A DNA stretch of 2,811 nt from a virus. Lineage: Duplodnaviria > Heunggongvirae > Uroviricota > Caudoviricetes. The position numbers were made by a program, and so were the translations under genes. The stretch is from positions 1 through 2,811 of IMG/VR virus record IMGVR_UViG_2802429235_000006. One strand, written 5' to 3'. Each line of letters opens with the position of its first letter. Position 1 is the first letter of the stretch. The notes beneath the pieces were generated by a model that did no database searches, had not been told where the DNA came from, and was given only the letters and a program-made list of their open reading frames with translations. Shown piece after piece: positions 883 through 2,811 of the stretch.

Positions 883-1098
883 ATGTACCAGATGGAAAAA
901 ATCACAACAGGAGTGTCATACACCACGTCTGCGGTGGGGACGGGATACTGGTTTCTGCAGTTGCTGGACAGGCTATCCCCGTCTCAGTGGGCGGCGATAG
1001 GTGTGCTGGGGAGTCTGCTGTTTGGTTTGCTGACGTACCTGACGAATCTGTATTTCAAAATTAAAGATGATCGTCGTAAGGCGGCGCGTGGAGAGTAG
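883..1098 (+). CDS. S: class II holin (pinholin), phage-21 S-like, 71 aa
   Basis: GGAGG at 871-875, 7 nt before ATG 883; second in-frame ATG at 892 (M1-Y-Q-M4 dual-start arrangement). Product [71 protein letters not shown]. It has a weakly hydrophobic Gly/Ser/Thr-rich TMD1, a hydrophobic TMD2 and a charged C-terminal tail ([13 protein letters not shown]). This closely resembles my recollection of phage 21 S21. Stop TAG 1096-1098. Confidence 0.9.
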
Positions 1099-1773: not shown

Positions 1774-2307
1774 ATGAGTGCAAAAATCAAATACGGCCTG
1801 TCGGCTGCCGTTCTGGCGATGATTGCCGCAGGGGCTTCTGCGCCTGAAATTCTCGACCAGTTTCTGGATGAAAAGGAAGGCAACCACATAACAGCATACC
1901 GTGATGGTACGGGTATCTGGACCATCTGCCGTGGTGCCACAATGGTGGACGGTAAGCCTGTCGTTCCTGGCATGAAACTGACGAAGACAAAATGCGAGCA
2001 GGTGAACGCCATCGAGCGCAATAAGGCGCTGGCGTGGGTGGAGGAAAATATCCAGGTATCGCTGACTGAGCCGCAGAAAGCAGGTATCGCGTCGTTCTGT
2101 CCGTACAACATTGGCCCAGGTAAGTGTTTCCCGTCGACGTTTTATAAGCGGCTTAATGCCGGTGATCGTAAAGGTGCCTGCGAGGCGATTCGCTGGTGGA
2201 TTAAGGATGGTGGCAAAGACTGCCGTATTCGCTCAAACAACTGCTACGGTCAGGTATCACGGCGTGACCAGGAAAGCATGCTGACGTGCTGGGGGATAGA
2301 TAATTGA
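1774..2307 (+). CDS. R: SAR endolysin: signal-anchor-release lysozyme (T4-lysozyme-like, GH24 muramidase), phage-21 R-like, 177 aa
   Basis: N-terminus [27 protein letters not shown] has K4/K6 followed by a weakly hydrophobic Ala/Gly/Ser-rich stretch, typical of a SAR domain. E35 (1876-1878), D44 (1903-1905) and T50 (1921-1923) have the 9/6 spacing of the T4 lysozyme E11-D20-T26 triad. No Cys within the SAR segment. Stop TGA 2305-2307. No obvious SD before ATG 1774. Confidence 0.92.
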
Positions 2308-2811
2308 TTAAGCTTGTGGCCATTGTATTGCTGTCAATTGGCTCATTTATTGCCGGAAATGTCTGGTGTGAAAGAGAATGGCAAACGAAATGGGCTGAGC
2401 GGGACAGTGAAGAGTCGTCGCAGATTGTTAATACGCAGATTGCTACCAGGAGGATTGAACAGGGGCGTATTGTTGCCCGTGATGAGGCTGTCAAAGATGC
2501 ACAAGAGAAAGCTGTCAAAGCCAATGCTACTGTTGCTGGTTTATCTGCCACTGTTAGTCAGTTGCGGGAAAAAGCAACAAGGCTTACCAGTCAGACTGGA
2601 ATCGGCAGAGCATACCGCAAATATTGCCGCTACCGTCAGAAGCAAAACAATCGAAAGCAACGTCGCAATGCTCGCCGACATGCCCGGAAGCCTTGCAGAA
2701 GAAGCTGGATATTATGCTAAACGAGCTGACGAAAATTACCGCGCTGGATTGACATGTGAACGCATTTATAATTTAGTCAGAGATTCAAATTATCTGACAG
2801 AGACGTACTAA
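2304..2811 (+). pseudogene. Rz: i-spanin (Rz-type) gene, frame-disrupted as written: N-terminal TMD and first helical region in frame 0 (2304 to about 2573), C-terminal periplasmic region in frame 1 (about 2575-2811)
   Basis: TTG 2304 overlaps the R stop (aTTGA), with GGGGGA 7 nt upstream. Frame 0 gives [21 protein letters not shown] (N-terminal TMD with K3) then a charged helical region ...[29 protein letters not shown]. It then becomes a 41-aa Arg/Lys-rich tail ([41 protein letters not shown]) to TAA 2718-2720, typical of out-of-frame translation. Frame 1 from about 2581 gives a well-formed helical tail (...[46 protein letters not shown], stop 2809-2811) resembling Rz C-termini as I recall them (lambda ...RLADTAERDYFTLRERL...). 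Removing one nt near 2569-2573 yields a continuous 168-aa Rz. Confidence 0.65.
2497..2752 (+). pseudogene. Rz1: o-spanin (Rz1-type) outer-membrane lipoprotein gene embedded in Rz, affected by the same frame shift: signal peptide and lipobox in frame 1, predicted mature region in frame 2
   Basis: ATG 2497 with GAGG 9 nt upstream. Frame 1 gives [23 protein letters not shown]: a basic n-region, hydrophobic h-region and lipobox L-V-S-C (Cys codon 2563-2565). As written, frame 1 runs on through the Rz-like helical tail to 2811 (104 aa). Frame 2 after the Cys region reads ...[59 protein letters not shown] to TGA 2750-2752. This is Pro/Ser/Gln-rich like embedded Rz1 mature domains; with one nt removed the product is 84 aa, fully embedded in Rz. 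Confidence 0.5.

Follow-up and report, generated by a model that had tools for sequence, protein, structure and literature searches.

In the 2,811-nucleotide stretch of DNA analysed here (the window), a single A inserted at position 2589, in a stretch common to the genes of the i-spanin Rz and the o-spanin Rz1, breaks both genes together. The best explanation overall, which we hold with high confidence, is that these genes form an embedded spanin pair of the RzpQ/RzoQ (DUF2514) family that has become a pseudogene within a cryptic prophage remnant. Such a pair is a routine and known kind of thing, and its importance extends little beyond correct annotation. It illustrates cleanly that, where one gene is embedded in another, a single indel can inactivate both proteins in one step. 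Gene callers then emit misleading chimeric ORFs; in this case they are a 'DUF2514' lipoprotein of 104 aa and a truncated Rz of 138 aa, which occur on about 100 public contigs.

Reading frames and the lesion at position 2589

The window is a lambdoid late/lysis region according to Pfam and PHROG profiles, and all parts of the spanin pair lie on its plus strand. An earlier note, made from the sequence, had described 2304-2811 as Rz-like in frame 0, as a lipoprotein in frame 1 and as continuing in frame 2, a description that our three-frame translation reproduced. The i-spanin gene starts with a TTG that overlaps the endolysin stop, and its N-terminal 95 codons (2304..2588, frame 0), identified by PF10721, PHROG 312 and alignment with K-12 RzpQ, encode the transmembrane domain (TMD) and the first helical region, with a hydrophobic stretch at residues 2-21 followed by charged helical sequence. 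Past the inserted base (2589..2589), the C-terminal 73 codons continue in frame 1 (2590..2811, stop 2809-2811), where they match positions 95-160 of the PF10721 profile. The o-spanin is divided at the same point. Its N-terminal part, read by translation in frame 1 (2497..2589), comprises the signal peptide, the lipobox LVSC with its Cys codon at 2563-2565 and the first mature residues, while the mature domain lies in frame 2 (2591..2752, stop 2750-2752), is recognized by its CSPTC-containing translation and matches PHROG 11621 (E = 9e-9).

As the sequence stands, frame 0 yields a 138-aa ORF (2304-2720), in which the TMD and helical Rz-like sequence are followed by an out-of-frame Arg/Lys-rich tail of 43 codons plus stop (2589..2720, stop 2718-2720), evident from the translation of the truncated i-spanin. 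Frame 1 is open from 2308 to 2811 and passes from the lipoprotein signal into the Rz-like C-terminus. The 161-position DUF2514 profile (PF10721) is correspondingly split: positions 5-100 match residues 4-96 of the frame-0 product, positions 95-160 match the frame-1 product, and the two halves abut exactly. This division over two frames at profile position 95-100 indicates a frameshift inside one gene rather than a chance resemblance. No Pfam match extends past residue 96 of the 138-aa product. The earlier note had named conservation of the basic tail among homologues as an observation that would speak against a frameshift; a counterpart of the tail was sought in intact relatives and homologues, and none was found.

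The position of the lesion was established by comparison with intact relatives, against which A2589 is the only indel. In the pairwise alignment with the gene of an Escherichia coli M18 prophage, it is the sole gap (CTTACC[A]GTCAG in the window vs CTTACCGTCAG in M18), and the frameshifted allele reads CTTACCAGTCAG at the insertion site. Since A2589 stands between C and G, the position of the insertion is unambiguous and no homopolymer has changed. The prediction that one inserted base within 2563-2600 moves both embedded frames by +1 is thus borne out, whereas its assignment to the A5 run at 2569-2573, 16 nt upstream of A2589, is incorrect. We made the count of this run in relatives that had been proposed, and it is the same in the window and in intact M18 (both GGGAAAAAGC), which lacks only A2589. 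Dropping one A from the run, the repair suggested earlier, returns proteins of the right lengths (168 and 84 aa) with the wrong residues, as 5-6 positions per protein conflict with M18 and other relatives, and we rejected it. The frame logic behind that suggestion was sound; attributing the indel to the nearest homopolymer was not.

Deleting A2589 in silico gave the predicted products, a 168-aa Rz and a fully embedded 84-aa lipoprotein read in the +1 frame from the ATG at 2497. The repaired Rz covers the whole DUF2514 profile in the Pfam run that the earlier note had called for (E = 3e-39) and matches PHROG 312, 'Rz-like spanin' (E = 1e-46). The repaired Rz1 runs from 2497 to the stop at 2750-2752, wholly within Rz (2304-2811), and has a mature o-spanin of 61 aa. 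It occupies 0.38-0.88 of the length of Rz, a span typical for embedded pairs (PMC6139136).

We also compared the locus with the criteria for embedded two-component spanins used in the same work (PMC6139136). An i-spanin with an N-terminal TMD and a helical periplasmic domain is encoded by the repaired Rz and is split over frames 0 and 1 in the window; the o-spanin lipoprotein signal with its lipobox Cys is present as LVSC; and the o-spanin gene lies wholly within the i-spanin gene in the +1 frame once A2589 is removed. The pair occupies the last place in the lysis cassette, after the holin (883-1098) and the lysozyme (1774-2307). The two frames themselves are not intact, as A2589 truncates Rz at residue 95 and severs the Rz1 signal from its mature domain.

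Intact relatives and inheritance of the extra base

Among complete E. coli genomes, a close match to the Rz gene of the window was found in only four, M18, M1, M3 and CI5. The M18 gene is 97.4% identical (507 nt vs 508), encodes a 168-aa DUF2514 protein and follows an rrrQ lysozyme. The prophage of these strains, whose DUF2514 protein is WP_034172993.1, shares with the window the order of holin, lysozyme, Rz and cytochrome b as well as the same A5 run, and differs from it in lacking A2589, so that its 168-aa Rz, with the embedded o-spanin, is read in one frame. In M18, annotated terminase genes follow the lysis genes and cytochrome b, forming a complete phage late region. The same intact allele occurs in the IMG/VR record UViG_2711768044_000001 (contig L049), again with A2589 as the only indel relative to the window, and several long, unannotated ORFs lie downstream of it.

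The best-known relative of the pair is rzpQ (ydfP)/rzoQ of the K-12 Qin prophage. Like the window pair, it belongs to DUF2514, follows an rrrQ-type lysozyme and a phage-21-type holin, and resides in a cryptic prophage; the DNA identity is about 70%. Gapless alignments relate the repaired Rz to RzpQ (50% identity over 163 residues) and the repaired Rz1 to the embedded Qin lipoprotein (52% over 82 residues). The statement in the earlier note that RzoQ is about 84 aa long, and would match, proved accurate: the +1-frame lipoprotein ORF within K-12 rzpQ has 84 aa, as does the repaired Rz1. Unlike the window pair, the Qin genes are in frame, at 165 and 84 aa, and occupy another chromosomal site in another host lineage.

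More distant relatives show the same architecture. A protein-guided scan of GTDB species representatives returned 26 relatives, from genera including Citrobacter, Kluyvera, Pantoea, Mixta, Erwinia, Escherichia and Shigella, and all 26 cross the junction in a single frame. In 25 of them, a +1-frame lipoprotein carries the lipobox LL[AST]SC and the conserved core CSPTCSE.LQ.KL in one frame, so the embedded +1-frame layout of Rz1 within Rz is common to K-12 Qin and these 25 relatives. Phage genes annotated as Rz-like spanins reach 70-76% DNA identity; among them, phage N15 gene 55 (gp55, DUF2514) has 73.9%. PHROG 312 and 11621 match the repaired i-spanin and o-spanin as they do the N15-type Rz-like spanins, which in contrast to the window pair are functional phage genes read in a single frame. 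The repaired pair also resembles lambda Rz/Rz1, where the lysis cassette ends with an i-spanin, which has an N-terminal TMD and a helical periplasmic domain, and with an o-spanin lipoprotein encoded entirely within the i-spanin gene in the +1 frame. It nevertheless belongs to another sequence family, without a Pfam match to Rz or Rz1 (PF06085), and its mature o-spanin is longer (61 aa vs 40 in lambda) and less proline-rich, besides the pair being inactivated. Taken together, these comparisons show that an in-frame embedded pair is the ancestral state and that one base was gained in the lineage of the window.

Every one of the 19 loci from which the Rz region was extracted has the extra A. The loci derive from 16 assemblies, comprising NCBI isolates, ENA metagenome scaffolds and Logan read assemblies, and represent seven distinct alleles that differ at up to 7 of 508 positions (1.4%) in this gene. 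Because the extra base is common to all of these diverged alleles, the insertion predates their divergence and has been inherited. Look-ups with the window lysozyme and with a 105-aa ORF recovered long NCBI isolate and ENA metagenome contigs that hold all 2811 bases at 98.7-100% identity. The carrier strain GCA_002965965.1 is 100% identical to the window, and one Logan read assembly that encodes the 138-aa product matches it at 100% identity along 692 nt. In a collection of 15 billion proteins, the clusters of the 104-aa and the 138-aa products together account for roughly 100 contigs, and the exact repaired 168-aa protein is absent. An exact-pattern scan of the GTDB species representatives for either allele gave no match, and none of the 26 relatives from the protein-guided scan is a copy of the remnant. 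A2589 is thus a mutation of long standing that has been passed on, and no read error. Of the two readings between which the earlier note left the choice, this inheritance upholds the one in which the spanins of a decaying prophage have truly been inactivated.

Two further sequences were noted during these searches. Protein P0030 (ENA, 164 aa, on a 1501-nt contig) is an intact in-frame Rz with the junction TVRLEAAEH that shares the marker residues K23, T48, M50, P128, N161 and D166 with the remnant alleles, and it may be the nearest intact relative of the remnant. A contig of a metagenome-assembled genome labelled Veillonella parvula (JAGZPX010000007.1) carries a Qin-type rzpQ whose embedded lipoprotein ORF matches that of the E. 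ruysiae representative exactly and that of E. coli almost exactly; it is probably Escherichia DNA contaminating the bin.

Consequences, later decay and alternative readings

The locus is a lambdoid lysis cassette that consists of a pinholin, a SAR-type lysozyme and, in last place, an embedded two-component DUF2514 spanin. The A at 2589 was inserted in the stretch shared by the two spanin genes, so that one event disrupted both. The i-spanin would now be a 138-aa protein with 95 genuine residues (TMD and first helix) and 43 of nonsense, having lost its distal helical domain. The signal and lipobox of the o-spanin would be fused to the C-terminal helix of Rz in a predicted 104-aa chimera, and the true mature o-spanin domain would be left without a start codon or signal. 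In lambda, knockout of Rz or of Rz1 alone blocks outer-membrane disruption (PMC6139136). By analogy with these genetics, an i-spanin without its distal domain and an o-spanin cut from its signal would form no functional spanin complex, which makes the pair a likely pseudogene. Neither the 104-aa nor the 138-aa ORF bears signs of conservation.

The insertion is old, and further lesions of the remnant came after it. We tabulated substitutions in seven remnant copies, taking the Rz-region differences of one locus (L019) from the allele comparison, and scored ORF lengths in 15 full-length copies. On Rz, one synonymous and seven nonsynonymous substitutions were counted; the numbers are small, and they suggest relaxed selection on the spanin pair in a qualitative sense only. 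In three loci (L012, L019 and L020), a G>A change at 2564 converts the lipobox Cys to Tyr (LVSC to LVSY), a second and independent blow to the same o-spanin gene. L017 and L018 have lost 28 nt of the lysozyme gene (window 2053-2080). This deletion, which falls exactly between two CAGGTATCGC repeats (2053-2062 and 2081-2090), cuts the lysozyme ORF, from its original start, to 160 codons. In L020, a C>T change equivalent to window position 439 introduces the stop Q48* into the DUF1378 gene. All 15 copies checked have a full-length holin, and 13 of them also have a full-length lysozyme. The picture is one of a remnant that appears to decay neutrally, with the spanin frameshift as the oldest shared lesion of its lysis cassette. 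Yet the cassette is not uniformly wrecked, and some use of the holin and lysozyme may have been retained.

We considered whether the frameshifted allele might still be alive, through low-level +1 slippage at CUU-A or as host-kept dominant-negative blockers or a lysis attenuator for a domesticated holin and endolysin, and regard this as very unlikely. One form of the idea is neofunctionalisation, in which the 104-aa lipoprotein with the distal Rz helix, the basic-tailed 138-aa i-spanin, or both, would be retained because they serve the host, possibly by interfering in a dominant-negative manner with the spanins of superinfecting relatives or by attenuating lysis. In its favour, gene finders call both of these open ORFs on many contigs, the allele persists through up to 1.4% divergence, and the adjoining holin and lysozyme are mostly intact. 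However, persistence is also what one would expect if the lesion were neutral and the remnant inherited vertically, and the substitutions that have accumulated do not spare the new products. The Cys to Tyr change in three loci would abolish lipidation of the chimera, all three substitutions in its Rz part are nonsynonymous, and so are both of those in the basic tail (R33Q and C43F), which is conserved in no homologue. The chimera also lacks a C-terminal TMD. A reading as a unimolecular spanin (u-spanin) of the T1 gp11 type is ruled out by this absence: the 104-aa product has a lipobox, and its C-terminus, ...CERIYNLVRDSNYLTETY, is hydrophilic and without a TMD. We therefore consider a retained new function highly improbable.

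A programmed +1 ribosomal frameshift could in principle restore full-length Rz, and similarly Rz1, at the CUU-A of 2583-2586, where the codon CUU would be exchanged for UUA. CUU-N serves as the slippery codon in prfB and Ty1, and a +1 slip of the peptidyl-tRNA-Leu would give ...ATRLPVRLES..., one residue off the ancestral ...ATKLTVRLEA.... Nonetheless, the site lacks the features of the prfB or Ty1 type. The next codon, ACC, is common and is neither a stop nor rare, and no suitably spaced Shine-Dalgarno-like stimulator is found, the upstream AGG being derived and confined to the window allele, where others have AAG. Moreover, both overlapping genes would need to shift, and A2589 is absent from all intact relatives, all of which are read in a single frame. 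Later in this lineage the lipobox Cys was lost and nonsynonymous changes accumulated, and the remnant has no phage to release. Programmed frameshifting is for these reasons barely plausible. Finally, single-base indels are the commonest assembly artefact and the A5 run is close by, yet a sequencing or assembly error in an organism with an intact pair, which the earlier note had linked to a homopolymer, deserves next to no credence, given that the extra base lies in C-A-G outside any homopolymer, that it recurs in 16 separately produced assemblies and seven sequence-distinct alleles, with frameshifted products on about 100 contigs, and that the sequence differences between the assemblies exclude a common origin in one read set.

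The prophage remnant and the rest of the window

The remnant to which the pseudogenised pair belongs measures about 8.7 kb and occupies a site between ompW and yciE/trp in an Escherichia-like chromosome. It is flanked by yciA/yciB/yciC-type genes and ompW on one side and by yciE/yciF/yciG-type genes (DUF892, KGG) and trpA-trpD on the other, an arrangement that matches the ompW-yciE-trp neighbourhood of the K-12 map. The trpA beside one remnant copy (L003) is at most 94.8% identical to that of any of the 5422 complete E. coli genomes, which places the host in an Escherichia-like lineage distinct from E. coli sensu stricto. The frameshift is also a stable lineage marker for the prophage remnant at the ompW-yciE site in this non-coli lineage.

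Besides the lysis genes, the remnant carries LpxR, a cytochrome b gene, part of an integrase and small ORFs, to which some copies add PmrD and a longer NanS-p-like gene. Genes for terminase, portal, capsid or tail proteins were not found in the approximately 8.7 kb. The lpxR gene, of the lipid A deacylase family, is present in loci L003-L021, and pmrD in some copies. The cytochrome b gene (PF01292) lies directly downstream of Rz in the remnant and in the intact M18 phage alike, and its presence after Rz in the latter identifies it as phage cargo.

Upstream of the lysis genes, the window opens with the 3' end of a DUF6645 (NanS-p-like) gene (1-162): its first ORF retains no more than the last 53 codons of a NanS-p-like esterase gene with the domains DUF1737-SASA-DUF6645. 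Longer NanS-p-like versions (219, 423 plus 219, and 649 aa) occur in other copies, among them L012, L015 and L018, and in phages, and these differing lengths show that the extent to which the remnant is truncated varies between lineages. A DUF1378 gene (298-474) and a DUF826 gene (500-805) follow. Near the 3' end of the former, a C7 run (460-466) precedes TCCC (...APPLP); such a homopolymer could vary in length, and no length variation was seen in it among the copies examined. Across the window, an Rfam search returned no RNA family, and promoter-like and terminator-like sites were not enriched over shuffles.

In the window, both genes preceding the spanin pair are intact. The phage-21-type class II holin, or pinholin (883..1098, plus strand), has 71 aa (PF04971, E = 1e-32), and the phage lysozyme (1774..2307, plus strand) is a 177-aa protein with the hydrophobic N-terminus of a SAR-type endolysin (PF00959, E = 2e-24; PHROG 7). 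Between them lies an AT-rich insert (1100-1770) with 36-42% GC, compared with about 55% around it. The insert holds a 65-aa ORF on the plus strand (1139-1336) and a 105-aa ORF on the minus strand (1329-1646); the latter has no Pfam match and belongs to PHROG 1853, a family of unknown function. In the public collection, the same 105-aa protein appears in 199 blocks, and the insert as a whole looks like a moron.
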